A stretch of 64,000 nucleotides of DNA. Origin: Escherichia coli. Lineage in GTDB: Bacteria; Pseudomonadota; Gammaproteobacteria; Enterobacterales; Enterobacteriaceae. How positions within the stretch are numbered: position 1 is the first letter of the stretch; each line of letters starts with the position of its first letter. The stretch is from the NCBI RefSeq assembly GCF_030013205.1, contig NZ_CP122648.1, one strand, 5' to 3'. A program made the position numbers and the translations under genes. Below, piece by piece: positions 4,312-58,485 of this stretch. The notes under the pieces were generated by a model. The model saw only the letters and a program-made list of their open reading frames with translations, searched no databases and was not told the origin of the DNA.

Positions 4312-4390
4312 CCCGCCGACTAACATCCTTCCCCCGTCCGTTGTATAGTGACCTCTCTCTTGCGGTTCCATCTGTTCTTGCGAGGTGTTT

Positions 4391-4729
4391 ATGCTTGATG
4401 AAAAAAGTTCGAATACCGCGTCTGTCGTGGTGCTATGTACGGCACCGGATGAAGCGACAGCCCAGGATTTAGCCGCCAAAGTGCTGGCGGAAAAACTGGC
4501 GGCCTGCGCGACCTTGATCCCCGGCGCTACCTCTCTCTATTACTGGGAAGGTAAGCTGGAGCAAGAATACGAAGTGCAGATGATTTTAAAAACTACCGTA
4601 TCTCACCAGCAGGCACTGCTGGAATGCCTGAAGTCTCATCATCCATATCAAACCCCGGAACTTCTGGTTTTACCTGTTACACACGGAGACACAGATTACC
4701 TCTCATGGCTCAACGCATCTTTACGCTGA
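4391..4729 (+). CDS. cutA: divalent-cation tolerance protein CutA
   Basis: 112 aa from ATG 4391 ([14 protein letters not shown]...), SD gcgaggtg upstream; 3' end overlaps dsbD start. Confidence 0.9.
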
Positions 4730-6402
4730 TCCTGCTACTTTGCAGCACTTCCGTTTTTGCCGGATTATTCGACGCGCCGGGACGTTCACAATTTGTCCCC
4801 GCGGATCAAGCCTTTGCTTTTGATTTTCAGCAAAACCAACATGACCTGAATCTGACCTGGCAGATCAAAGACGGTTACTACCTCTACCGTAAACAGATCC
4901 GCATTACGCCGGAACACGCGAAAATTGCCGACGTGCAGCTGCCGCAAGGCGTCTGGCATGAAGATGAGTTTTACGGCAAAAGCGAGATTTACCGCGATCG
5001 GCTGACGCTTCCCGTCACCATCAACCAGGCGAGTGCGGGAGCGACGTTAACTATCACCTACCAGGGCTGTGCTGATGCCGGTTTCTGTTATCCGCCAGAA
5101 ACCAAAACCGTTCCGTTAAGCGAAGTGGTCGCCAACAACGCAGCGTCACAGCCTGTGTCTGTTCCGCAGCAAGAGCAGCCCACCGCGCAATTGCCCTTTT
5201 CCGCGCTCTGGGCGTTGTTGATCGGTATTGGTATCGCCTTTACGCCATGCGTGCTGCCAATGTACCCACTGATTTCTGGTATCGTGCTGGGCGGTAAACA
5301 GCGGCTCTCCACTGCCAGAGCATTGTTGCTGACCTTTATTTATGTGCAGGGGATGGCGCTGACTTACACGGCACTGGGTCTGGTGGTTGCCGCCGCAGGG
5401 TTACAGTTCCAGGCGGCGCTACAGCACCCATACGTGCTCATTGGCCTCGCTATCGTCTTTACCTTGCTGGCGATGTCAATGTTTGGCTTGTTTACTCTGC
5501 AACTCCCCTCTTCGCTGCAAACACGTCTCACGCTGATGAGCAATCGCCAACAGGGCGGCTCACCTGGCGGTGTGTTTGTTATGGGGGCGATTGCCGGACT
5601 GATCTGTTCACCATGCACCACCGCACCGCTTAGCGCGATTCTGCTGTATATCGCCCAAAGCGGGAACATGTGGCTGGGGGGCGGCACGCTTTATCTCTAT
5701 GCGTTGGGCATGGGCCTGCCGCTGATGCTAATTACCGTCTTTGGTAACCGCTTGCTGCCGAAAAGCGGCCCGTGGATGGAACAAGTCAAAACCGCGTTTG
5801 GTTTTGTGATCCTCGCACTGCCGGTCTTCCTGCTGGAGCGAGTGATTGGTGATATATGGGGATTACGCTTGTGGTCGGCGCTTGGTGTCGCATTCTTTGG
5901 CTGGGCCTTTATCACCAGCCTACAGGCCAAACGCGGCTGGATGCGCGTGGTGCAAATAATCCTGCTGGCAGCGGCATTGGTTAGCGTGCGCCCACTTCAG
6001 GATTGGGCATTTGGTGCGACGCATACCGCGCAAACTCAGACGCATCTCAACTTTACACAAATCAAAACGGTAGATGAGTTAAATCAGGCGCTCGTTGAAG
6101 CCAAAGGCAAACCAGTGATGTTAGATCTCTATGCCGACTGGTGCGTCGCCTGTAAAGAGTTTGAGAAATACACCTTCAGCGACCCGCAGGTGCAAAAAGC
6201 GTTAGCAGACACGGTATTACTTCAGGCCAACGTCACTGCCAACGACGCACAAGATGTGGCGCTGTTAAAGCATCTTAATGTCCTTGGCCTACCGACAATT
6301 CTCTTTTTTGACGGACAAGGCCAGGAGCATCCACAAGCACGCGTCACGGGCTTTATGGATGCTGAAACCTTCAGCGCACATTTGCGCGATCGCCAACCGT
6401 GA
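4705..6402 (+). CDS. dsbD: thiol:disulfide interchange protein DsbD
   Basis: 565 aa from ATG 4705 ([13 protein letters not shown]...); CxxC thioredoxin-like C-terminal domain (WCVACK). Confidence 0.95.
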
Positions 6403-7120: not shown

Positions 7121-7196
7121 GCCCGGATAGCTCAGTCGGTAGAGCAGGGGATTGAAAATCCCCGTGTCCTTGGTTCGATTCCGAGTCCGGGCACCA
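7121..7196 (+). tRNA. pheU: tRNA-Phe (anticodon GAA)
   Basis: 76-nt cloverleaf sequence GCCCGGATAGCTCAGTCGGTAGAGCAGGGGATTGAAAATCCCC...CCA; anticodon loop TTGAAAA. Confidence 0.95.
7174..7196 (+). repeat. attL core (3' end of pheU), duplicated at 38277-38298
   Basis: 23 nt ttcgattccgagtccgggcacca; 22 of these recur (one G fewer) at 38277. Confidence 0.75.
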
Positions 7197-7236: not shown

Positions 7237-7393
7237 TTCAGAACACCATGATTTAAGTGTTCTTCCTCCAAATCAATTCTACCGAACTCAACCAAATTCT
7301 CCCCACATCAACCTCATTGTGTGGGTATAATTGCGGGTATACCCCAGTTCGACAGAATTTATACCCTCTTTAACGCATTCAGAAGGCTGAACT

Positions 7394-8656
7394 ATGGCAC
7401 TGACTGACGCAAAAATCCGGGCTGCAAAGCCCACTGACAAGGCTTATAAACTCACTGACGGGGCCGGCATGTTCCTGCTGGTTCATCCTAATGGTTCCCG
7501 TTACTGGCGTCTCCGCTATCGTATTCTGGGTAAGGAGAAGACTCTGGCACTTGGTGTGTATCCAGAAGTTTCTCTCTCCGAAGCTCGTACAAAACGGGAT
7601 GAGGCCCGAAAACTGATTTCAGAGGGGATTGACCCTTGCGAACAGAAAAGAGCTAAAAAAGTTGTCCCTGATTTACAGCTCTCTTTTGAACATATTGCAC
7701 GACGCTGGCATGCCAGTAATAAACAATGGGCACAATCACACAGCGATAAAGTACTCAAAAGCCTCGAGACACACGTTTTCCCCTTTATCGGCAACCGGGA
7801 TATCACAACACTCAGTACCCCGGACCTGCTTATCCCTGTTCGTGCTGCAGAAGCTAAACAAATTTATGAAATCGCCAGTCGTCTGCAGCAAAGAATATCT
7901 GCTGTAATGCGTTATGCCGTACAGTCTGGCATCATCAGATATAACCCGGCTCTGGATATGGCTGGTGCATTGACCACGGTAAAACGCCAGCATCGCCCTG
8001 CACTGGATCTTTCACGCCTGCCTGAACTTCTGTCGCGTATTGACGGTTATAAAGGCCAGCCTGTCACCCGACTGGCAGTTATGCTGAATTTACTGGTTTT
8101 TATTCGTTCCAGTGAACTCAGATACGCCCGCTGGTCTGAAATTGATATTGACAATGCCATGTGGACTATTCCAGCCGAACGCGAACCTCTGCCTGGCGTA
8201 AAATTCTCACACCGGGGCTCCAAGATGCGAACACCACATCTTGTGCCACTCAGCAAACAGGCTGTAGCCATACTGGCAGAACTACAGACATGGGCTGGTG
8301 AAAATGGTCTGATCTTTACGGGAGCACATGACCCGCATAAACCAATCAGTGAAAATACTGTAAATAAAGCCCTGAGGGTGATGGGGTATGACACAACCCA
8401 GGATGTCTGTGGCCATGGATTCCGTGCGATGGCATGTAGTGCGCTGATCGAATCAGGTTTGTGGTCCCGCGATGCTGTTGAACGTCAGATGAGCCATCAG
8501 GAACGTAACGGTGTACGCGCTGCGTATATCCATAAAGCCGAACATCTGGAAGAACGCCGGCTGATGCTACAGTGGTGGGCAGATTTTCTGAATGCGAACA
8601 GAGAGAAATGTATCAGTCCGTTTGATTATGCAAAGATCAACAATCCATTAAAATAG
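7394..8656 (+). CDS. int: P4-type tyrosine integrase
   Basis: 420 aa directly downstream of tRNA-Phe; N-terminal MALTDAKIRAAKP... and C-terminal HGFRAMA...RAAY tyrosine-recombinase signature. Confidence 0.9.
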   Translation: MALTDAKIRAAKPTDKAYKLTDGAGMFLLVHPNGSRYWRLRYRILGKEKTLALGVYPEVSLSEARTKRDEARKLISEGIDPCEQKRAKKVVPDLQLSFEHIARRWHASNKQWAQSHSDKVLKSLETHVFPFIGNRDITTLSTPDLLIPVRAAEAKQIYEIASRLQQRISAVMRYAVQSGIIRYNPALDMAGALTTVKRQHRPALDLSRLPELLSRIDGYKGQPVTRLAVMLNLLVFIRSSELRYARWSEIDIDNAMWTIPAEREPLPGVKFSHRGSKMRTPHLVPLSKQAVAILAELQTWAGENGLIFTGAHDPHKPISENTVNKALRVMGYDTTQDVCGHGFRAMACSALIESGLWSRDAVERQMSHQERNGVRAAYIHKAEHLEERRLMLQWWADFLNANREKCISPFDYAKINNPLK

Positions 8657-29432: not shown

Positions 29433-29646
29433 TATAGTGGTTAATGACCTGCGAAAAGGCAGTTGATTCTCTTCATCATGCAGAACGGAATTGCACACAA
29501 CGGACTGATGCTTCTCTGGCGGATGAGAGAGGGGAAGCATTTATGTCCGAGAAAAACCACTTTATCTGACCATGCTGTTTTGTACCTGCCGGTATCCACA
29601 TTTGTGGGTACCGGCTTTTTTATTCACCCTCTGTAAGGAAAAGCTG

Positions 29647-32493
29647 ATGAAACGACATCTGAACACCAGCTACAGGCTGGTATGGAATCACATTACGGGC
29701 ACCCTGGTGGTGGCTTCCGAACTGGCCCGCTCACGGGGGAAACGTACTGGCGTGGCGCTGGCGCTGTCTCTTGCCACCGCCACTTCAGTCCCGGCCCTGG
29801 CTGCTGACAGTGTTGTACAGGCAGGGGAAATCGTGAACGGCGGGACACTGGTAAATCATGACAACCAGATTGTCTTCGGTACGACCAACGGAATGACCAT
29901 CAGTACCGGGCTGGAGTATGGGCCGGATAACGAGGCCAATACCGGCGGGCAATGGGTACAGGATGGCGGCACAGCCAGTAATACCACCATCAGCAACGGC
30001 GGGCTCCAGTTTGTAGGTGCCGGGGGAAAGGCTACAGACACAATAATCAATGAAGGAGGCGGACAAAGTCTGAAGGGACTGGCACTGAACACCACGCTGA
30101 ATGGTGGCGAGCAGTGGATGCATGAAGGTGCGATAGCCACAGGAACCGTCATTAATGATAAGGGCTGGCAGGTCGTCAAACCCGGCGCAGTGGCAACAGA
30201 CACCGTTGTGAATACCGGCGCAGAAGGAGGACCGGATGCAGAAAATGGTGATACCGGGCAGTTTGTTCGCGGAAATGCCGTACGTACCACTATCAATAAA
30301 AATGGTCGTCAGATTGTGGTAGCCACCGGAGTGGCAAACACCACGGTGGTTTATGCCGGCGGCGACCAGACGGTACATGGCCACGCACTGGATACCACGC
30401 TGAATGGCGGTAACCAGTATGTGCACAACGGCGGTACAACGTCTGACACTGTTGTGAACAGTGACGGCTGGCAGATTATCAAGGAAGGTGGTCTGGCGGA
30501 TTTCACCACCGTTAACCAGAAAGGCAAACTGCAGGTGAACGCCGGTGGTACAGCCACGAATGTCACCCTGAAGCAGGGCGGCGCACTGGTCACCAGTACT
30601 GCTGCAACGGTTCTTGGCAGCAACCGTCTGGGGAATTTCACGGTGGAAAACGGTAAGGCTGACGGCGTTGTTCTGGAGTCCGGCGGTCGCCTGGATGTAC
30701 TGGAGGGCCATTCAGCGCAGAATACCCTGGTGGATGACGGCGGTACCCTGGCAGTGTCTGCCGGTGGTAAGGCAACAGATGTCACCATGACATCCGGTGG
30801 TGCCCTGATTGCAGACAGTGGTGCCACTGTTGAGGGGACCAATGCCAGCGGTAAGTTCAGTATTGATGGCATATCCGGTCAGGCCAGCGGCCTGCTGCTG
30901 GAAAATGGCGGCAGCTTTACGGTTAATGCCGGGGGACAGGCCGGTAACACCACTGTCGGATATCGTGGAACACTGACGCTGGCTGCCGGGGGAAGTCTGA
31001 GTGGCAGAACACAGCTCAGTAAAGGTGCCAGCATGGTACTGAATGGCGATGTGGTCAGTACCGGCGATATTGTTAACGCAGGGGAGATTCGCTTTGATAA
31101 TCAGACAACACCGGATGCCGCGCTGAGCCGTGCTGTTGCAAAAAGTAACTCCCCGGTAACGTTCCATAAACTGACCACCAGTAACCTCACCGGCCAGGGC
31201 GGCACCATCAATATGCGTGTCAGCCTTGATGGCAGTAATGCCTCAGACCAGCTGGTAATTAATGGTGGTCAGGCAACCGGCAAAACCTGGCTTGCGTTCA
31301 CAAATGTCGGAAACAGCAATCTCGGGGTGGCAACCTCCGGACAGGGTATCAGGGTTGTGGATGCACAGAATGGCGCCACCACAGAAGAAGGTGCGTTTGC
31401 CCTGAGTCGCCCGCTTCAGGCCGGCGCCTTTAACTACACCCTGAACCGTGACAGCGATGAAGACTGGTACCTGCGCAGTGAAAATACTTATCGTGCTGAA
31501 GTCCCCCTGTATGCCTCCATGCTGACACAGGCAATGGACTATGACCGGATTCTGGCAGGCTCCCGCAGCCATCAGACCGGTGTAAGCGGTGAAAATAACA
31601 GCGTCCGTCTCAGCATTCAGGGCGGTCATCTCGGGCACGATAACAACGGTGGTATTGCCCGTGGGGCCACGCCGGAAAGCAGCGGCAGCTATGGCTTCGT
31701 CCGTCTGGAGGGTGACCTGCTCAGAACAGAGGTTGCCGGTATGTCTCTGACGACAGGGGTGTATGGTGCTGCAGGCCATTCTTCCGTTGAAGTTAAGGAT
31801 GATGACGGCTCCCGCGCCGGCACGGTCCGGGATGATGCCGGCAGCCTGGGCGGATACCTGAATCTGGTACACACATCCTCCGGCCTGTGGGCTGACATTG
31901 TGGCACAGGGAACCCGCCACAGCATGAAAGCGTCATCGGACAATAACGACTTCCGCGCCCGGGGCTGGGGCTGGCTGGGCTCACTGGAAACCGGTCTGCC
32001 CTTCAGTATCACTGACAATCTGATGCTGGAGCCACAACTGCAGTACACCTGGCAGGGACTTTCCCTGGATGACGGCCAGGATAACGCCGGTTATGTGAAG
32101 TTCGGGCATGGCAGTGCACAACATGTGCGTGCCGGCTTCCGTCTGGGCAGCCACAACGATATGACCTTTGGTGAAGGCACCTCATCCCGTGACACCCTGC
32201 GCGACAGTGCAAAACACAGTGTGCGTGAACTGCCGGTGAACTGGTGGGTACAGCCTTCTGTTATCCGCACCTTCAGTTCCCGGGGTGACATGAGCATGGG
32301 GACAGCCGCTGCCGGCAGTAACATGACGTTATCACCGTCACAGAATGGCACGTCACTGGACCTGCAGGCCGGACTGGAAGCCCGTGTCCGGGAAAATATC
32401 ACCCTGGGGGTACAGGCCGGTTATGCCCACAGCGTCAGCGGCAGCAGTGCTGAAGGTTATAACGGTCAGGCCACGCTGAATGTGACTTTCTGA
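29647..32493 (+). CDS. flu: antigen 43 self-associating autotransporter
   Basis: 949 aa from ATG 29647 (MKRHLNTSYRLVWNH...); long Gly/Thr-rich beta-helix passenger and C-terminal beta-barrel. Confidence 0.9.
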   Translation: MKRHLNTSYRLVWNHITGTLVVASELARSRGKRTGVALALSLATATSVPALAADSVVQAGEIVNGGTLVNHDNQIVFGTTNGMTISTGLEYGPDNEANTGGQWVQDGGTASNTTISNGGLQFVGAGGKATDTIINEGGGQSLKGLALNTTLNGGEQWMHEGAIATGTVINDKGWQVVKPGAVATDTVVNTGAEGGPDAENGDTGQFVRGNAVRTTINKNGRQIVVATGVANTTVVYAGGDQTVHGHALDTTLNGGNQYVHNGGTTSDTVVNSDGWQIIKEGGLADFTTVNQKGKLQVNAGGTATNVTLKQGGALVTSTAATVLGSNRLGNFTVENGKADGVVLESGGRLDVLEGHSAQNTLVDDGGTLAVSAGGKATDVTMTSGGALIADSGATVEGTNASGKFSIDGISGQASGLLLENGGSFTVNAGGQAGNTTVGYRGTLTLAAGGSLSGRTQLSKGASMVLNGDVVSTGDIVNAGEIRFDNQTTPDAALSRAVAKSNSPVTFHKLTTSNLTGQGGTINMRVSLDGSNASDQLVINGGQATGKTWLAFTNVGNSNLGVATSGQGIRVVDAQNGATTEEGAFALSRPLQAGAFNYTLNRDSDEDWYLRSENTYRAEVPLYASMLTQAMDYDRILAGSRSHQTGVSGENNSVRLSIQGGHLGHDNNGGIARGATPESSGSYGFVRLEGDLLRTEVAGMSLTTGVYGAAGHSSVEVKDDDGSRAGTVRDDAGSLGGYLNLVHTSSGLWADIVAQGTRHSMKASSDNNDFRARGWGWLGSLETGLPFSITDNLMLEPQLQYTWQGLSLDDGQDNAGYVKFGHGSAQHVRAGFRLGSHNDMTFGEGTSSRDTLRDSAKHSVRELPVNWWVQPSVIRTFSSRGDMSMGTAAAGSNMTLSPSQNGTSLDLQAGLEARVRENITLGVQAGYAHSVSGSSAEGYNGQATLNVTF

Positions 32494-32820
32494 TAATCAG
32501 GTCACTCCCCTTCAGGCCCCGGCCATCATGACCGGGGCTTTTTACTTTCAGGGAGCAACAGATATGCCTGGTTGTACATCACGTTTATTGCCCGAAGGCC
32601 CTTTTGCTGCCAAATGGCATCTGAATCGATCACAGTTTGACCGGTTATTACCCGATCCCGATGGGGTTATTGGGTGATCTCCTTCCATAAAAATACGCAG
32701 CTCGCCAGTGAAGGGCTTCTCAGACAATAAACGTCATTCATTTCATCGGTCAGGCCGCGTCTTCTCCGGGAGACGCGGCTTTTTCATTTATACCGCTAAC
32801 TCATTCATAAGGAGCAAATC

Positions 32821-33639
32821 ATGCGATTAGCAAGTCGTTTTGGTCATGTAAACCAGATACGCCGTGACCGTCCGCTGACACATGAAGAACTGATGCACTA
32901 TGTACCCAGTATTTTTGGGGAAGATCGGCATACCTCCCGCAGTGAACGCTATGCGTACATTCCCACCATCACCGTACTGGAAAGCCTGCAGCGGGAAGGT
33001 TTTCAGCCATTCTTCGCCTGCCAGACCCGCGTGCGCGATCCGGGCCGCCGGGGATACACCAGACACATGCTGCGTCTGCGGCGGGCCGGGGAGATAACCG
33101 GACAACATGTCCCTGAAATTATTCTGCTCAACTCCCATGACGGTACCTCCAGCTACCAGATGCTGCCGGGTTACTTCAGATTCGTCTGCCAGAACGGCTG
33201 CGTCTGCGGTCAGTCTCTGGGGGAAGTCCGTGTGCCCCACCGGGGAAATGTGGTGGACAGAGTCATTGAAGGGGCTTACGAGGTAGTGGGCGTTTTTGAC
33301 CGGATTGAGGAAAAGCGTGATGCCATGCAGTCTCTGGTCCTGCCGCCACCGGCACGTCAGGCGCTGGCACAGGCGGCACTGACTTACCGTTATGGTGACG
33401 AACATCAGCCGGTCACCACCGCCGACATTCTGACGCCACGACGCAGGGAGGATTACGGTAAGGACCTGTGGAGTGCATATCAGACCATCCAGGAGAATAT
33501 GCTGAAAGGCGGGATTTCCGGTCGCAGCGCTAAAGGAAAACGTATCCACACCCGTGCCATTCACAGCATCGACACGGACATTAGGCTCAACCGCGCATTG
33601 TGGGTGATGGCAGAAACGCTGCTGGAGAGCCTGCGCTGA
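32821..33639 (+). CDS. DUF945/YfjQ-family protein
   Basis: 272 aa, SD aaggag; CP4-type island protein. Confidence 0.65.
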   Translation: MRLASRFGHVNQIRRDRPLTHEELMHYVPSIFGEDRHTSRSERYAYIPTITVLESLQREGFQPFFACQTRVRDPGRRGYTRHMLRLRRAGEITGQHVPEIILLNSHDGTSSYQMLPGYFRFVCQNGCVCGQSLGEVRVPHRGNVVDRVIEGAYEVVGVFDRIEEKRDAMQSLVLPPPARQALAQAALTYRYGDEHQPVTTADILTPRRREDYGKDLWSAYQTIQENMLKGGISGRSAKGKRIHTRAIHSIDTDIRLNRALWVMAETLLESLR

Positions 33640-33730
33640 TGCTGTTTCCCTGAAAGTGCAGCCCTGACTCACGTCTGTACCAGTCCCCAGGCATTCTTCC
33701 ATTCATTTGCTTTTTATAAGGAATAATCTC

Positions 33731-34216
33731 ATGACAACCTCTTCGCATAATTCCACCACACCTTCTGTTTCCGTAACCGCTGCATCAGGGAATAACCAGT
33801 CTCAACTGGTTGCCACTCCCGTCCCTGATGAACAGCGCATCAGTTTCTGGCCGCAGCACTTTGGCCTCATTCCACAGTGGGTGACCCTGGAGCCCCGTAT
33901 CTTCGGCTGGATGGACCGTCTGTGTGAAGACTACTGCGGTGGTATCTGGAATCTGTATACCCTGAACAACGGCGGGGCATTTATGGCACCCGAACCGGAT
34001 GACGATGATGACGAAACATGGGTACTGTTCAATGCCATGAACGGTAACCGCGCTGAAATGAGCCCGGAAGCCGCCGGTATTGCCGCCTGTCTGATGACGT
34101 ACAGCCATCATGCCTGTCGTACGGAGTGTTATGCCATGACGGTCCATTATTACCGGCTGCGGGATTACGCCCTGCAGCATCCTGAATGCAGCGCCATTAT
34201 GCGCATCATCGACTGA
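33731..34216 (+). CDS. antirestriction protein (YfjX/KlcA-like)
   Basis: 161 aa from ATG with SD aagga; acidic DDDDDE patch. Confidence 0.65.
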   Translation: MTTSSHNSTTPSVSVTAASGNNQSQLVATPVPDEQRISFWPQHFGLIPQWVTLEPRIFGWMDRLCEDYCGGIWNLYTLNNGGAFMAPEPDDDDDETWVLFNAMNGNRAEMSPEAAGIAACLMTYSHHACRTECYAMTVHYYRLRDYALQHPECSAIMRIID

Positions 34217-34230
34217 GCCGGAGAAGCACA

Positions 34231-34707
34231 ATGCAACAACTTTCCTTTCTGCCCGGAGAGATGACAACCAGAGAGCGCAGTCTCATTCTGCGGGCCCTGA
34301 AAACCCTGGACCGCCATCTTCATGAACCCGGTGTGGCCTTCACCTCCACGCATGCGGCACGGGAATGGCTGATTCTGAACATGGCAGGACTGGAGCGGGA
34401 AGAGTTCCGGGTACTGTATCTGAACAACCAGAATCAGCTGATTGCGGGTGAAACCCTCTTCACCGGCACCATCAACCGCACGGAGGTCCATCCCCGGGAA
34501 GTGATTAAACGTGCCCTGTACCACAATGCCGCTGCCGTGATACTGGCACACAACCACCCGTCCGGTGAAGTCACTCCCAGTAAGGCAGACCGGCTTATTA
34601 CGGAACGTCTGGTACAGGCACTGGCCATGGTGGATATCCGGGTGCCGGACCATCTGATAGTCGGTGGCAGCCAGGTTTTCTCCTTTGCCGAACACGGTCT
34701 GCTTTAA
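34231..34707 (+). CDS. RadC-like JAB-domain protein (YeeS/YfjY family)
   Basis: 158 aa; JAMM motif HNHPSGE. Confidence 0.8.
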   Translation: MQQLSFLPGEMTTRERSLILRALKTLDRHLHEPGVAFTSTHAAREWLILNMAGLEREEFRVLYLNNQNQLIAGETLFTGTINRTEVHPREVIKRALYHNAAAVILAHNHPSGEVTPSKADRLITERLVQALAMVDIRVPDHLIVGGSQVFSFAEHGLL

Positions 34708-34775
34708 CCCGTCACCGTCACAACCACATCACACCTGTTTTCACTTTTATCTTCTGTCTTCAGAGGTATCCCACC

Positions 34776-34997
34776 ATGAAAATTATCACCCGTGGTGAAG
34801 CCATGCGCATTCACCGTCAGCATCCGGCATCCCGTCTTTTTCCGTTCTGCACCGGTAAGTACCGCTGGCACGGCAGCACTGAGGCATATACCGGTCGTGA
34901 AGTGCAGGATATTCCCGGTGTGCTGGCCGTGTTTGCTGAACGCCGTAAGGACAGTTTTGGCCCGTATGTCCGGCTGATGAGTGTAACCCTGAACTGA
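34776..34997 (+). CDS. YeeT/DUF987-family protein
   Basis: 73 aa, SD gagg. Confidence 0.6.
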   Translation: MKIITRGEAMRIHRQHPASRLFPFCTGKYRWHGSTEAYTGREVQDIPGVLAVFAERRKDSFGPYVRLMSVTLN

Positions 34998-35015
34998 GTC
35001 AGGAAGGGAATTCTG

Positions 35016-35660
35016 ATGAGCAGAATTATCACCACCACCGTGTATACGCTGGATGAACTTTCCTGCCCGGCACGGGAAAAAGCCCGCGACGGGTACCGTC
35101 AGCATCATGCTGACAGCAACTGGTATGAAAACGTGTATGAAGACTTCAGGGAGGTCTGTGACATTTTCGGGATTAACCTCCGCCAGCGTGTTATCCGGCT
35201 CAGCAGTGGCAGGTTTATGGAAGAGCCGTGCATCTGGTTCAGCGGATTCTGCAGCCAGGGGGACGGAGCCTGTTTTGAAGGACGCTGGCACTGGCAGTCA
35301 GCAACAGCCAGGAGAATCCGGGAGTATGCCCCACAGGACCGTGAAATTCATCGTATCGCGGATGCCCTGCAGTCGGTACAGAAGCGTAACTTCTGGCAGT
35401 TACAGGCTGAAATCAGTCACCGGGGACGTTACTGCCATCCGTACAGCATGGATATCACCGTCACCCGGAACAGTCCGACTGGTCAGGTAATGACAACCGA
35501 TGCGGAAGCCGCTGTCAGCGAAGCCCTGCGCGACCTGGCCTTCTGGTTGTACCGTCAGCTGGAAAACGAGTACGACTGGCTGACCTCAGACGCCGCTGTG
35601 GATGAGGCCCTTCTCATCAACGAATACACCTTCACCGAAGCCGGTCTGCGCGCCGGCTGA
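35016..35660 (+). CDS. hypothetical protein (Cys/Trp-rich)
   Basis: 214 aa, SD ggaaggg; sits between yeeT-like gene and cbeA. Confidence 0.5.
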   Translation: MSRIITTTVYTLDELSCPAREKARDGYRQHHADSNWYENVYEDFREVCDIFGINLRQRVIRLSSGRFMEEPCIWFSGFCSQGDGACFEGRWHWQSATARRIREYAPQDREIHRIADALQSVQKRNFWQLQAEISHRGRYCHPYSMDITVTRNSPTGQVMTTDAEAAVSEALRDLAFWLYRQLENEYDWLTSDAAVDEALLINEYTFTEAGLRAG

Positions 35661-35709
35661 CTCGTCATCGTTAAACTATCATTCACCGATTTTCTGTGAG
35701 GATTTTATC

Positions 35710-36078
35710 GTGTCAGACACACTCCATGAAACAAATTATCCCGACGACAACAACGACCGCTCCTGGTGGGGGCTACCCTGCACCGTGACGCCCTGTTTCA
35801 GGGCACGTCTGGTGCAGGAAGGGAACCGGTTGCATTACCTTGCAGACCGTGCCGGTATCAGAGGCCGGTTCAGCGACGCGGATGCGTACCATCTGGACCA
35901 GGCCTTTCCGCTGCTGATGAAACAACTGGAACTCATGCTCACCAGCGGTGAACTCAGTCCCCGCCATCAGCATACCGTCACGCTGTATGCAAAAGGGCTG
36001 ACCTGCGAAGCCGACACCCTCGGCAGTTGTGGCTACGTTTATATGGCTGTTTATCCGACGCCCGAAACGAAAAAGTAA
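35710..36078 (+). CDS. cbeA: CbeA/YeeU-family type IV antitoxin
   Basis: 122 aa from GTG 35710 with SD gagga (MSDTLHETNYPDD...WWGLPCTVTPCF...). Confidence 0.8.
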   Translation: MSDTLHETNYPDDNNDRSWWGLPCTVTPCFRARLVQEGNRLHYLADRAGIRGRFSDADAYHLDQAFPLLMKQLELMLTSGELSPRHQHTVTLYAKGLTCEADTLGSCGYVYMAVYPTPETKK

Positions 36079-36167
36079 ATAATCAGAATAACCTTCTGCT
36101 CCGGCCAGGTGCTTTCACCACACCACTTTCCCATTTCTCATCTCTGCATATCAGGAAAATCTTCAGT

Positions 36168-36545
36168 ATGAAAACATTACCTGTATTACCCGGGCAGGCG
36201 GCCGGTTTACGCCCGTCTCCGGTTGAAATCTGGCAGACACTGCTTACCAGACTGCTGGACCAGCATTACGGCCTCACGCTGAATGACACGCCGTTTGCCG
36301 ATGAACGTGTGATTGAGCAGCATATTGAGGCAGGCATATCACTGTGTGATGCGGTGAACTTTCTCGTGGAAAAATACGCGCTGGTGCGTACCGACAAGCC
36401 GGGATTCAACGCCTGTACCCACTCTCAGTTAATAAACAGCATCGATATCCTCCGGGCCCGCCGGGCAACAGGCCTGATGACCCGCGACAATTACAGAACG
36501 GTGAACAATATCACCCGGGGTAAACATTCGGAGGCGAAACGATGA
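36168..36545 (+). CDS. cbtA: CbtA/YeeV-family toxin
   Basis: 125 aa (MKTLPVLPGQAAGLRPSPVEIWQ...) directly downstream of the antitoxin. Confidence 0.8.
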   Translation: MKTLPVLPGQAAGLRPSPVEIWQTLLTRLLDQHYGLTLNDTPFADERVIEQHIEAGISLCDAVNFLVEKYALVRTDKPGFNACTHSQLINSIDILRARRATGLMTRDNYRTVNNITRGKHSEAKR

Positions 36546-37030
36546 AACTGACCCTGACACTGGAAGCCGACAGTATTAATGTGCAGGCACTGAACATGGA
36601 GCGAATTGTTGTTGACGTCGATGGTATTGAGCTCGCTGAACTGATTAATAAGGTCGCTGAAAACGGTTATTCACTCCGCGTGGTGGATGCTCCCGAACAG
36701 CAGACAACGGATTCTCCACCATCGTTTACGGCCCTTACCGGCATACGCTGCAGTACCGCACATATCACGGAAAAGGATAACGCCTGGCTGTACTCGCTGT
36801 CACACCAGACCAGTGACTTCGGTGAATCAGAATGGATTCATTTCACAGGTAGCGGATATCTGTTACGTACCGATGCGTGGTCATATCCGGTTCTGCGGCT
36901 TAAACGCCTGGGGCTGTCAAAAACGTTCCGTCGTCTGGTTGTCACACTCATCCAACGTTATGGCGTCAGTCTCATTCATCTGGATGCCAGCGCTGAATGT
37001 CTGCCGGACCTGCCCACTTTCGACTGGTAA
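36542..37030 (+). CDS. YeeW-like protein
   Basis: 162 aa, start overlaps cbtA stop (ATGA). Confidence 0.55.
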   Translation: MKLTLTLEADSINVQALNMERIVVDVDGIELAELINKVAENGYSLRVVDAPEQQTTDSPPSFTALTGIRCSTAHITEKDNAWLYSLSHQTSDFGESEWIHFTGSGYLLRTDAWSYPVLRLKRLGLSKTFRRLVVTLIQRYGVSLIHLDASAECLPDLPTFDW

Positions 37031-53522: not shown

Positions 53523-55169
53523 ATGTCAAACAAACCCTTTATCTACCAGGCACCTTTCCCGATGGGGAAAGACAATACCGAATACTATCTACTCACTTCC
53601 GATTACGTTAGCGTTGCCGACTTCGACGGCGAAACCATTCTGAAAGTGGAACCAGAAGCCCTGACCCTGCTGGCGCAGCAAGCCTTTCACGACGCTTCTT
53701 TCATGCTCCGCCCGGCCCACCAGAAACAGGTCGCGGCTATTCTTCACGATCCAGAAGCCAGCGAAAACGACAAGTACGTGGCGCTGCAATTCTTAAGAAA
53801 CTCCGAAATCGCCGCCAAAGGCGTGCTGCCGACCTGCCAGGACACCGGCACTGCGATCATCGTCGGTAAAAAAGGCCAGCGCGTGTGGACCGGTGGCGGT
53901 GATGAAGAAGCGCTGTCGAAAGGCGTCTATAACACCTATATCGAAGATAACCTGCGCTATTCACAGAACGCGCCGCTGGACATGTATAAAGAGGTCAACA
54001 CCGGCACGAACCTGCCTGCGCAAATCGACCTGTACGCGGTAGATGGCGATGAGTACAAATTCCTTTGCGTTGCGAAAGGCGGCGGCTCTGCCAACAAAAC
54101 GTATCTCTACCAGGAAACCAAAGCCCTGCTGACTCCCGGCAAACTGAAAAACTTCCTCGTCGAGAAAATGCGTACCCTCGGTACTGCAGCCTGCCCGCCG
54201 TACCATATCGCGTTTGTGATTGGCGGTACGTCTGCGGAAACCAACCTGAAAACCGTCAAGTTAGCAAGCGCTCACTATTACGATGAACTGCCGACGGAAG
54301 GGAACGAACATGGTCAGGCGTTCCGCGATGTCCAGCTGGAACAGGAACTGCTGGAAGAGGCCCAGAAACTCGGTCTTGGCGCGCAGTTTGGTGGTAAATA
54401 CTTCGCGCACGACATTCGCGTTATCCGTCTGCCGCGTCACGGTGCATCCTGCCCGGTAGGCATGGGCGTCTCCTGCTCCGCTGACCGTAACATTAAAGCG
54501 AAAATCAACCGCGAAGGTATCTGGATCGAAAAACTGGAACACAATCCAGGCCAGTACATTCCACAAGAACTGCGTCAGGCCGGTGAAGGCGAAGCGGTGA
54601 AAGTCGACCTTAACCGCCCGATGAAAGAGATCCTCGCCCAGCTTTCGCAATATCCGGTTTCCACTCGTTTGTCGCTCACCGGCACCATTATTGTGGGTCG
54701 AGATATTGCACACGCCAAGCTGAAAGAGCTGATTGACTCCGGTAAAGAACTTCCGCAGTACATCAAAGATCACCCGATCTACTACGCGGGTCCGGCGAAA
54801 ACGCCTGCCGGTTATCCATCAGGTTCACTTGGCCCAACCACCGCAGGTCGTATGGACTCCTACGTGGATCTGCTGCAATCCCACGGCGGCAGCATGATCA
54901 TGCTGGCGAAAGGTAACCGCAGTCAGCAGGTTACCGACGCGTGTCATAAACACGGCGGCTTCTACCTCGGTAGCATCGGCGGTCCGGCGGCGGTACTGGC
55001 GCAGCAGAGCATCAAGCATCTGGAATGCGTCGCTTATCCGGAGCTGGGTATGGAAGCTATCTGGAAAATCGAAGTAGAAGATTTCCCGGCGTTTATCCTG
55101 GTCGATGACAAAGGCAACGACTTCTTCCAGCAAATCGTCAACAAACAGTGCGCGAACTGCACTAAGTAA
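53523..55169 (+). CDS. fumB: class I (Fe-S) fumarate hydratase, anaerobic
   Basis: 548 aa; conserved Cys ligands; ends ...CANCTK. Confidence 0.95.
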
Positions 55170-55291
55170 CCTCTTCGGCCCAGCGCCTGGCAGCATGCTG
55201 CCAGGTGATCCCCCTGGGCCACCTCTTTTGCGATTGTAATTTCACGCTTGCTGGTGAATAGTCAGTATTTTCCCTGACTTGCGAACTCACC

Positions 55292-55942
55292 ATGACCCGC
55301 ACACTCAAGCCGTTAATTCTTAACACCGGCGCACTGGCGCTAACGTTAATCCTGATTTATACCGGCATTTCGGCCCGTGACAAACTCACCTGGCTGATGG
55401 AAGTGACACCGGTGATTATTGTCGTGCCGCTACTGCTTGCCACCGCTAAACGTTATCCGTTAACGCCGCTGCTCTATACGCTCATTTTCTTTCACGCCAT
55501 CATCCTGATGGTCGGCGGACAATACACCTACGCGAAAGTCCCCGTTGGTTTTGAGGTGCAGGAATGGCTGGGGTTGAGCCGTAATCCGTATGACAAACTG
55601 GGGCATTTTTTCCAGGGGCTGGTGCCTGCACTGGTGGCACGAGAGATCCTTGTGCGCGGGATGTACGTTCGCGGACATAAGATGGTGGTGTTTCTGGTCT
55701 GCTGCGTGGCGCTGGCGATAAGCGCGATGTATGAATTAATCGAGTGGTGGGCGGCGCTGGCAATGGGCCAGGGAGCGGATGATTTTCTCGGCACCCAGGG
55801 CGACCAGTGGGACACGCAATCCGATATGTTCTGCGCGCTGCTTGGCGCATTAACGACGGTGATATTCCTCGCTCGCTTTCATTGCCGCCAGCTACGGCGC
55901 TTTGGCTTAATCACCAGAGCGCCGGAAGCGATTACCCCTTAA
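55292..55942 (+). CDS. yjdF: inner-membrane protein YjdF
   Basis: 216-aa multi-TM ORF; stop overlaps melA stop on opposite strand. Confidence 0.8.
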   Translation: MTRTLKPLILNTGALALTLILIYTGISARDKLTWLMEVTPVIIVVPLLLATAKRYPLTPLLYTLIFFHAIILMVGGQYTYAKVPVGFEVQEWLGLSRNPYDKLGHFFQGLVPALVAREILVRGMYVRGHKMVVFLVCCVALAISAMYELIEWWAALAMGQGADDFLGTQGDQWDTQSDMFCALLGALTTVIFLARFHCRQLRRFGLITRAPEAITP

Positions 55943-57294
55943 CGGTGCAACCAGCCAGGCAGCCAGTCGCCGTGGGCAGCAATCAAGTCGTCAACAAGAG
56001 CATATATTTCGTCAATGCCCAGCACGGCGGCAGTATGCGGGTCCATCATCGCGGCGTGGTAAACACGGTCGCGATTTTCCGTAAGAATGGCTTCGGTCAG
56101 CAGCGTCTGTACGTTGATGTTGGTTTGCATCAGGGCGGCCAGATGCGAAGGTAGCGTACCGACTTTGGTCGGCTGAATGCCATTAGCATCAACCAGACAG
56201 GCCACTTCCACACAACATCCTTGTGGCAGGTTATCAATCAATCCATCGTTACGGACGTTGCCGTAAATCACACTCGGCTCGCCAGTCCAGATAGCGTTCA
56301 TGATTGTGCTGGCATATTCCCGTGACGGTTTAATATCAATCCGGGAGGCGTTTTTATACTCCTCCAGCTCTTTATGCCAGTTCGCCAGCTGCTCGACGCA
56401 GCGTTTCGGGTACTCATCCAGCGGTACTTTATAACGCTCAATCAAATCCTCACGACCTGGCTTAATAAACCACGGTGTGTACTCAGCAAAATGTTCTGAC
56501 GATTCCGTGACGAAGTAGCCCAGCTTTTTGAACATTTCGTAGCGCACAATATTCTGGCAGCGAGTATTGCCATGAATATTCGGCTTCGGTGCCTGCCCTG
56601 CTTCATAAGCCGCCAGCAGTTCCGGGTAGAGATTCACGTAACTGCCGTCGGCGGTTTTGCGCTCCAGTTCCAGGTAAAACGCCATATGGTTGATACCTGC
56701 ACAACGGTAACGCAGCGTAGACGGGTCGATATTGAGGTCACGCGCCAGCTCTTCCGCCGTTCCCTGCACCGAATGGCACAGCCCTACCTGTTTGATATGC
56801 GGATAGCGGGCATACATCGCCCAGGTATTCATCGCCATTGGGTTAACATAGTTGAGCATGGTGGCATCGGGGCAGACTTCCGTCATGTCCTCGCAAATTT
56901 GCCACAGATGCGGAATGGTACGTAGCGCGCGCATAATACCGCCCGGCCCCAACGTATCGGCAATGGTTTGTTCCAGACCATGCCGCTTACAGACCTCGAA
57001 ATCAGTCACCGTGCAAGGTTCATAACCGCCAATCTGAAATGCCACCACGACAAAATCAGCATCCTGTAAGGCTTCTTTCTGTTGGGTGTGGCAGGTGATT
57101 TTGCCGCTGGCCCCTGCTGAATCCATCAGCTTACGCACCACAATGTGCGACTCTTCCAGGCGGGTGGGATCAATGTCCATCAGGGCAATATGCGCCGTTT
57201 TCAGCGCCTCGCGATGGAACACATCACCAAGAATATTTTTAACGAAAATCGTCGAACCAGCGCCGATAAATGTAATTTTGGGTGCAGACATCAT
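55939..57294 (-). CDS. melA: alpha-galactosidase (NAD/Mn-dependent, GH4)
   Basis: 451 aa; N-terminal Rossmann motif GAGSTIF. Confidence 0.95.
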   Translation of the reverse strand: MMSAPKITFIGAGSTIFVKNILGDVFHREALKTAHIALMDIDPTRLEESHIVVRKLMDSAGASGKITCHTQQKEALQDADFVVVAFQIGGYEPCTVTDFEVCKRHGLEQTIADTLGPGGIMRALRTIPHLWQICEDMTEVCPDATMLNYVNPMAMNTWAMYARYPHIKQVGLCHSVQGTAEELARDLNIDPSTLRYRCAGINHMAFYLELERKTADGSYVNLYPELLAAYEAGQAPKPNIHGNTRCQNIVRYEMFKKLGYFVTESSEHFAEYTPWFIKPGREDLIERYKVPLDEYPKRCVEQLANWHKELEEYKNASRIDIKPSREYASTIMNAIWTGEPSVIYGNVRNDGLIDNLPQGCCVEVACLVDANGIQPTKVGTLPSHLAALMQTNINVQTLLTEAILTENRDRVYHAAMMDPHTAAVLGIDEIYALVDDLIAAHGDWLPGWLHR

Positions 57295-57372
57295 GCAGAT
57301 CTCCTGGCTTGCTTGAATAACTTCATCATGGCAGGCGAATCTGCAGAAAACCTCCGGCTTCCAGGTTGAGCA

Positions 57373-57426
57373 TTCCCATAAACTCAGATCCTACGTGAAG
57401 CAGCAGTAAATCTGAGTTTATGGGAA
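57373..57426. promoter_or_regulatory. 17-bp perfect inverted repeat in melA-melR divergent intergenic region (candidate operator)
   Basis: ttcccataaactcagat ... atctgagtttatgggaa separated by 20 bp. Confidence 0.4.
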
Positions 57427-57576
57427 TAAATTACCTGAAAAGCAGAGTTTTCGGCCTCAGAATGCTCGGACGGTCCCCTCGCCTCTCTGGGAAGAGAGTG
57501 AAAACCGTGCTCCCACTCGCAGTCATCCTCCCTCACTCCTGCCATAATTCTGATATTCCAGGAAAGAGAGCCATCC

Positions 57577-58485
57577 ATGAATAAAGATACGTTTATGTGC
57601 AGTAGCGACGAAAAACAGACCCGCAGCCCGCTATCGCTGTATTCGGAATACCAGCGGATGGAGATTGAGTTTCGCGCACCGCATATCATGCCCACCAGCC
57701 ACTGGCATGGTCAGGTCGAAGTGAATGTGCCTTTCGATGGCGATGTGGAATACCTGATCAACAATGAAAAAGTGAATATCAATCAGGGTCATATCACGCT
57801 GTTCTGGGCCTGTACACCGCACCAACTAACAGATACCGGAACCTGTCAGAGCATGGCGATTTTTAATCTGCCGATGCATCTGTTTCTCTCCTGGCCGCTG
57901 GATAAAGACCTGATTAACCACGTCACTCACGGTATGGTGATCAAATCACTGGCGACACAGCAACTTAGCCCGTTTGAAGTGCGCCGCTGGCAGCAGGAAT
58001 TGAACAGTCCGAACGAGCAAATTCGCCAGCTCGCCATTGATGAAATTGGCCTGATGCTCAAGCGATTTAGCCTCTCTGGCTGGGAACCGATTCTGGTCAA
58101 TAAAACCTCGCGCACACACAAAAACAGCGTCTCGCGCCATGCGCAATTTTATGTCAGCCAGATGCTGGGCTTTATTGCCGAAAACTATGATCAGGCGCTG
58201 ACCATCAACGATGTGGCTGAGCACGTCAAACTTAACGCCAACTATGCAATGGGGATATTCCAGCGGGTCATGCAATTGACGATGAAACAGTACATAACCG
58301 CGATGCGCATCAACCACGTTCGCGCGTTACTGAGCGATACCGATAAAAGTATTCTCGATATTGCCCTGACGGCAGGCTTTCGTTCAAGTAGTCGTTTTTA
58401 CAGCACGTTCGGCAAATATGTCGGCATGTCGCCGCAACAATACCGCAAACTTAGCCAACAGCGCCGCCAGACGTTTCCCGGCTAA
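57577..58485 (+). CDS. melR: AraC-family melibiose operon regulator MelR
   Basis: 302 aa; C-terminal AraC-type HTH. Confidence 0.95.
   Translation: MNKDTFMCSSDEKQTRSPLSLYSEYQRMEIEFRAPHIMPTSHWHGQVEVNVPFDGDVEYLINNEKVNINQGHITLFWACTPHQLTDTGTCQSMAIFNLPMHLFLSWPLDKDLINHVTHGMVIKSLATQQLSPFEVRRWQQELNSPNEQIRQLAIDEIGLMLKRFSLSGWEPILVNKTSRTHKNSVSRHAQFYVSQMLGFIAENYDQALTINDVAEHVKLNANYAMGIFQRVMQLTMKQYITAMRINHVRALLSDTDKSILDIALTAGFRSSSRFYSTFGKYVGMSPQQYRKLSQQRRQTFPG

Follow-up and report, generated by a model that had tools for sequence, protein, structure and literature searches.

Why would an Escherichia coli strain keep the alpha-galactosidase gene melA and its regulator melR when no gene for the melibiose permease MelB stands beside them? 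This question is raised by a 64,000-nucleotide stretch of E. coli DNA (the window), in which melA runs tail to tail into yjdF. The gene order of K-12 MG1655 is adiA, melR, melA, melB, yjdF, fumB, dcuB, with melB at 4343369-4344790 in the annotation, so that the original prediction, which placed melB between melA and yjdF in K-12, was correct on this point. The K-12 melR/melAB locus (b4118-b4120) occupies the same site, between adiA and yjdF-fumB-dcuB, and the position of fumB indicates that the remaining synteny of the window is K-12-like. Based on the junction, its distribution and the condition of the remaining genes, we consider it highly probable that the window carries an old mel deletion allele of single origin, which has been inherited and recombined within Escherichia with MelR and MelA kept, LacY being the likely route of uptake. 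The features of the locus are as follows.

53523-55169, plus strand: fumB, flanking gene (ORF list, K-12 and K_EC180 annotation)
55292-55942, plus strand: yjdF, DUF2238 inner-membrane protein (ORF; Pfam DUF2238 at residues 42-182, E=3e-58)
55895-55924, no strand assigned: inverted repeat (hairpin) across the yjdF-side breakpoint, arms 11 nt, loop 8 nt (repeat search)
55916-55938, no strand assigned: 23-nt junction filler, delimited by the BLAST breakpoints against K-12
55939-55942, both strands: overlapping convergent stops TTAA, with the melA TAA at 55939-55941 (minus strand) and the yjdF TAA at 55940-55942 (plus strand)
55939-57294, minus strand: melA, intact GH4 alpha-galactosidase of 451 aa (Glyco_hydro_4 and Glyco_hydro_4C over the full length)
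57295-57576, no strand assigned: melR-melA divergent regulatory region, collinear with K-12
57577-58485, plus strand: melR, intact AraC-family activator of 302 aa (HTH_AraC/HTH_18)

The genes that remain at the locus are well preserved. Both melA and melR, which had been described as intact, are full-length open reading frames with the expected domains, and their nucleotide identities to K-12 are 98.5% for melA and 99.1% for melR, which is encoded divergently from melA. The stretch 55939-57600 aligns with K-12 as a single ungapped BLAST segment of 98.3% identity, and the whole run from melR through the divergent promoter region to melA is collinear with K-12 at approximately 98.3-99% nucleotide identity. 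On the other hand, melA of the window is monocistronic and lies tail to tail with yjdF, whereas the K-12 locus also holds melB, its spacers and the last two yjdF codons, all of which are missing here. The Na+/melibiose symporter MelB is not encoded downstream of melA, as no DNA lies between melA and yjdF, and a tblastn search with K-12 MelB as query did not find it in the window-identical locus (L002). Within the melR-melA intergenic region, 57338-57463 gave matches to plant miRNA-precursor Rfam families on both strands, at 24-27 bits against gathering scores above 100; these sub-threshold matches are most likely due to the inverted-repeat arrangement of the sites bound by the regulator and not to an RNA gene.

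The endpoints of the deletion were mapped by aligning 55200-57600 with the melB-containing K-12 locus, as had been proposed. Homology to K-12 is interrupted at 55915/55916 and at 55938/55939, leaving two collinear BLAST segments, one from 55200 to 55915, which begins in the fumB-yjdF spacer and ends with codon 208 of yjdF, and one from 55939 to 57600, from the melA stop onward. Between them, a 23-nt filler (55916-55938, AGAGCGCCGGAAGCGATTACCCC) stands in place of 1668 bp of K-12 DNA, namely the last 6 nt of yjdF (GGA TAA), the 138-nt melB-yjdF spacer, the 1422 nt of melB and the 102-nt melA-melB spacer, and the overall size of the deletion is 1.65 kb. The plus strand around 55930-55950 reads ...ATTACCCCTTAACGGTGC..., and yjdF on the plus strand and melA on the minus strand both terminate in the TTAA at 55939-55942. 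The sequence and the open reading frames thus confirm the predicted 2-nt overlap of the two stop codons on opposite strands; the reading frames themselves overlap by 4 nt and intergenic DNA amounts to 0 nt. Some relatives carry CTAA at the stop overlap, which gives melA a TAA and yjdF a TAG.

Since the own stop of yjdF has been lost, its reading frame runs through the filler. Codons 1-208 are homologous to K-12, and YjdF is 216 aa long in the window versus 209 aa in K-12, with the C-terminus changing from ...GLITG in K-12 to ...GLITRAPEAITP in the window as Gly209 is replaced by RAPEAITP. An altered C-terminus had been suspected, and it is borne out. The codons for the RAPEAITP tail occupy 55916-55939, most of the tail being encoded by the filler, while the DUF2238 domain (residues 42-182) is untouched by the altered end. 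A YjdF of 216 aa that ends in RAPEA(I/T)T(P/S), with its stop overlapping that of melA, is the mark of the deletion allele, and the window has exactly this form. Independently of the junction, yjdF (55292-55915) is unusually diverse in E. coli, the K-12 allele sharing no more than about 96% identity with most others, with dS values up to 0.19 and allele classes that are independent of melB status.

Across the carriers compared, the filler in melA orientation reads GG(G/T)GTA(A/G)T(C/T)GCTTCCGGCGCTCT. The 9-mer TTCCGGCGC and some adjacent bases are common to the filler and to the loop and right arm of the hairpin in the K-12 melA-melB spacer, a match with a shuffle p of about 0.03 when only this spacer is considered and of 0.19 against the whole deleted segment. 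This 9-nt exact match hints, weakly, that the filler might be a remnant of the K-12 spacer hairpin. An origin by snap-back copying from the end of yjdF was considered and rejected: the inverted repeat across the yjdF-side breakpoint (arms 55895-55905, CGGCGCTTTGG, and 55914-55924, CCAGAGCGCCG), with its 11-nt arms, is compatible with such an event but accounts for only about half of the filler.

The hairpins and REP sequences that K-12 carries 3' of melA and of melB are gone in the window. The inverted repeat at the junction folds stably on both strands, RNA folds of 55880-55990 (111 nt) having z scores of -2.9 on the plus strand and -3.6 on the minus strand. The junction hairpin is not followed by the U-tract of an intrinsic (Rho-independent) terminator, a terminator scan returned 4 sites versus 2.2 ± 1.4 in shuffles, which is not an enrichment, with none convincing at the junction, and the Rfam search found no family matching there. 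The idea that the junction holds a bidirectional terminator or a known RNA was dropped in view of the missing U-tract and Rfam match. The melA and yjdF transcripts are predicted to be convergent and probably overlap.

The junction is widespread in the species. A 200-nt probe centred on it gave an unsplit match in 1264 of 5426 complete E. coli genomes (~23%), and in the remaining probe-matching genomes the probe aligns in two pieces, one in yjdF and the other in melA. K-12 melB was found in 4136 complete E. coli genomes, and the junction and melB together account for 5400 of the 5401 probe-matching genomes, so that the two classes are essentially complementary. The original prediction that melB, and with it the dedicated permease, is missing is upheld by these complementary counts and by the lack of DNA at the locus, and from the counts we infer that melB is absent also elsewhere in the window's own genome. 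In 17 complete genomes the 2.4-kb region matches that of the window at 100% identity; almost all of these genomes come from swine, and the O139:H1 strains W13-16 and P15-25 are among them. Strain K_EC180 shares 100% identity with the window over 14.4 kb around the junction, and its RefSeq/PGAP annotation contains the same overlapping yjdF and melA.

The absence of melB from phylogroup B2 is already published, and the junction is a known gene-content polymorphism. Touchon et al. (2009, PLoS Genet, Table 5; PMC2617782) list melB, the melibiose permease, among the functions that group B2 specifically lacks, and B2 was later found to be negatively associated with melibiose degradation (Touchon et al. 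2020; PMC7314097). A description of the junction itself was not found in the literature on melB with yjdF or on melB with phylogroup. The published B2 absence corresponds to the same allele, as the junction is identical in UTI89, CFT073, 536 and ST131, with a filler showing 0 differences from the window in ST131 and UTI89. The window differs from these strains in having flanks that are not B2-like, and it matches O139:H1/ST1; edema-disease strains of this type have been assigned to phylogroup D (PMC11052496).

To establish polarity, we took one genome per species with MelA and searched it by tblastn for MelB, YjdF, FumB and MelR. The arrangement melR-melA-melB is present in Citrobacter, Salmonella, Kluyvera, Cedecea, Buttiauxella, Vibrio, Photobacterium and Pasteurellaceae, and several Citrobacter species have the order melA-melB-yjdF-fumB. 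Outside the deletion allele, YjdF stops 1-3 residues from the LIT motif, and since the native protein ends near LIT elsewhere, the RAPEAITP tail and the melB-less junction are derived. The same breakpoints and filler also occur in E. whittamii (L003), in SCPM-O-B-8794 (L004), a divergent genome labelled E. coli, and in Escherichia sp. E1V33 (L079). Together with ST131, UTI89, E04 and GF43, these carriers have fillers within 0-2 substitutions, those of E. whittamii, L004 and L079 differing from that of the window at 1-2 positions. The flanks of these three genomes differ by 3-10% from the window right up to the junction, with whole-gene identities of 90-97%, which argues that the allele is old in them and was not recently imported. 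As judged from these alignments, the shared filler and breakpoints show that the deletion arose once, and melB is shown to have been ancestrally present. The reservation that reference genomes of the same lineage might reveal the melA-yjdF junction as an ancestral state was thus half right: the junction is indeed shared by the lineage, but the melB-less arrangement is not primitive, the presence of melB being ancestral.

We propose that one ancestral event removed melB, both adjoining spacers and the last two yjdF codons and left the 23-nt filler behind. The yjdF frame would then have read eight new codons and stopped in the TTAA that terminates melA on the opposite strand. Within Escherichia, the resulting allele would have been passed on by descent and also carried from lineage to lineage by homologous recombination. 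It is fixed or nearly fixed in B2 and is also found in other backgrounds, including swine O139:H1/ST1.

Several other explanations have to be weighed against this scheme. Loss of melB through a collapsed or mis-joined assembly, against which the original prediction had cautioned, has a practically negligible probability, given that the identical junction is found in 1264 independently assembled complete genomes, that RefSeq annotates the overlap consistently, and that the junction contains no collapse-prone repeats, an inverted repeat of 11 nt being all that the repeat search returned there. A recent deletion confined to the strain or to the swine ST1 lineage would fit the existence of WCHEC4533, a close melB-positive relative with almost identical flanks. 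Yet the same 23-nt filler and breakpoints are found in B2 strains and in three other Escherichia genomes, and an independent event would not remake an untemplated filler; the near-identical flanks of WCHEC4533 are better explained by recombinational transfer of the indel, and we regard a private deletion as very improbable. The melB-less order could also be primitive, with melB as an insertion that K-12-like lineages gained between melA and yjdF, as the lack of melB in the three divergent Escherichia genomes and in early-branching B2, and the unusual uniformity of melB among its carriers, might suggest. At the family level this is wrong, since melR-melA-melB is conserved from Vibrio to Citrobacter, with melA-melB-yjdF-fumB in Citrobacter, and the yjdF of the junction is truncated and extended and the spacers are missing; we grant a primitive melB-less order a small probability, slightly above that of a private deletion.

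Loss of the permease might instead have set the whole system on a course of decay, and here the question of uptake matters. LacY, the classical lactose permease, also transports melibiose, which offers a route to MelA that is free of MelB. For UTI89, which carries the melB deletion, D-melibiose and methyl-alpha-galactoside were reported to be, besides lactose, the only lacY-dependent compounds among the Biolog carbon sources (bioRxiv 10.64898/2025.12.03.691977), and for the lineage of the window the route is proposed by analogy. In this scheme, LacY would take up alpha-galactosides, MelR would induce melA and MelA would hydrolyse the substrate; the gene lacY lies outside the window, and LacY probably supplies uptake in the window's strain. 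That melA and melR are instead turning into pseudogenes after melB loss would agree with the loss of the dedicated transporter and with pan-genome analyses in which melibiose degradation is negatively associated with B2 (PMC7314097). However, both genes are full length in every melB-less genome inspected, and UTI89 still grows on melibiose via LacY (bioRxiv 10.64898/2025.12.03.691977). Between melB-less lineages, dN/dS is 0.007-0.03 for melA, at dS of 0.20-0.45, and 0.013-0.04 for melR, values comparable to those of fumB; over dS up to 0.45 the ratios stay within 0.007-0.04. Both melA and melR are under strong purifying selection in melB-less lineages, which means that the MelA enzyme and the MelR regulator are maintained without MelB, and decay of the system is accordingly very unlikely. 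A textbook figure, cited in PMC11546641, puts the melibiose-fermenting share of E. coli at 75%; the melB-positive share of 76% resembles it, but this likeness is not counted as evidence because melB-less strains can use melibiose via LacY.

An old deletion of single origin with a preserved MelR-MelA pair also has to be reconciled with the background in which it is found. The melA of the window is 97.0% identical to that of ST131, 99.3% to that of the melB-positive strain WCHEC4533 and 98.5% to those of K-12 and O157. In 150-nt bins, the flanks of the window match WCHEC4533 near-perfectly on both sides of the junction (over 600 nt on the melA side, each bin holds 0-1 differences), while NT1F34, another carrier of the junction, has K-12/O157-like flanks. 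The markers of the Clermont scheme lie outside the window, but the indirect signs speak against B2: its flanks are nearer to non-B2 strains, and the 100%-identical strains are of O139:H1, which as ST1/O139:H1 is typed as phylogroup D. The flank haplotypes of the window and of NT1F34 imply that the allele is not confined to B2 and is present on several haplotypes. A tract imported from B2 around the junction of the window and of NT1F34 was looked for and rejected, no B2-like tract being seen in 150-nt bins; as the flanks match non-B2 melB-positive strains up to the junction, whatever tracts were transferred are too short or too old to be visible.

Deletion alleles also differ among themselves at two synonymous positions that lie no more than 10 nt from the breakpoint in yjdF, where they read either TTAATCACC or TTGATAACC. 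The form TTGATAACC is the type of melB-positive K-12, and both variants are found on deletion alleles (55907-55915 in the window and the equivalent positions of L084 and L086). Under a simple single-origin model, two variants so near the breakpoint would imply very short conversion tracts or recurrent mutation. The pattern points to fine-scale recombination around the indel as at least a partial explanation.

While the deletion allele sits on diverse flanks, melB is strikingly uniform. Of its 4136 carriers, 4127 have a copy with at least 99% identity to that of K-12, a level reached by melA in 2926 of 5399 genomes and by fumB in 2919 of 5422 (~54%). In pairwise comparisons among K-12, O157, WCHEC4533 and the clade-I-like MOD1-EC7003, melB shows 3-11 differences and fumB, yjdF and melA together show 62-129, with binomial p values for melB versus the flanks from 7e-3 down to 5e-15. 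The dS values are 0.006-0.024 for melB, 0.026-0.134 for melA, 0.063-0.164 for fumB and 0.07-0.19 for yjdF, those of melB thus being 5-20 times below the flanks, even against the clade-I-like genome. The trough of diversity coincides with melB and the melA-melB spacer, that is, with the indel segment (melB at 4370-5791 of the K-12 locus, L001; compared with L005, L085 and L089). This uniformity relative to the flanks, which may be a new observation, suggests a recent spread of the melB segment from lineage to lineage through homologous recombination, or a sweep of one haplotype. The deletion allele is found on flanks that have diverged to the level of species, and it follows that it predates or accompanies the split of E. 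whittamii and the two other Escherichia genomes. A possible further reading, which we hold tentatively and judge somewhat less probable than its opposite, is that the melB polymorphism is older than E. coli and that the melB-positive state is the younger one, re-spread or re-acquired into deletion lineages by recombination in a gene-specific sweep. If this were true, B2 and ST1 would keep the older Escherichia state, and melB would not have been 'lost' there.

The old deletion allele set against the uniform melB offers a compact, testable case in which lineages exchange an indel by homologous recombination, perhaps accompanied by a gene-specific sweep. For annotation, a missing melB beside an intact melA is a normal allele, carried by about 1 in 4 E. 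coli genomes, and needs no error flag. Strains without melB should not be called 'melibiose-negative' without considering LacY, and metabolic models that score melibiose use by melB alone will mis-call them. The presence of the allele in swine edema-disease/ETEC ST1 and in other Escherichia gives it limited value as a phylogroup marker.

Outside Escherichia, Citrobacter youngae and related genomes (L011, L019, L024, L026, L066) likewise have no melB between melA and yjdF and keep melR, melA, yjdF and fumB. Their junction is different from that of the window, consisting of a 57-70-nt spacer with a REP-like hairpin (at about 7353-7425 of each locus) and a native short yjdF end, and this difference argues for independent melB losses at the same place. 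In Salmonella diarizonae (L013), Citrobacter sedlakii (L010) and C. amalonaticus (L017), fumB comes next after melB and yjdF was not detected between them, so that the presence of yjdF at the locus varies across genera.

Elsewhere in the window, a genomic island of approximately 31 kb extends from 7121 to about 38200, after tRNA-Phe (7121-7196). It contains an integrase, IS fragments, a gene pair encoding a nucleotide-binding-domain protein and a SLATT protein, hha, YfjI, the Qat anti-phage genes qatC and qatD with a KAP NTPase, Ag43 (29572-32493), and a DUF932 / RadC / CbeA-CbtA / DUF5983 module. The window stems from a relative of K_EC180 and not from K_EC180 as such: a segment of about 4.06 kb in this region (32670-36725, with DUF932, RadC and the CbeA/CbtA toxin-antitoxin) is present in the window and absent from the near-identical K_EC180, and the two sequences also show a 90-nt length difference near 17.7 kb.
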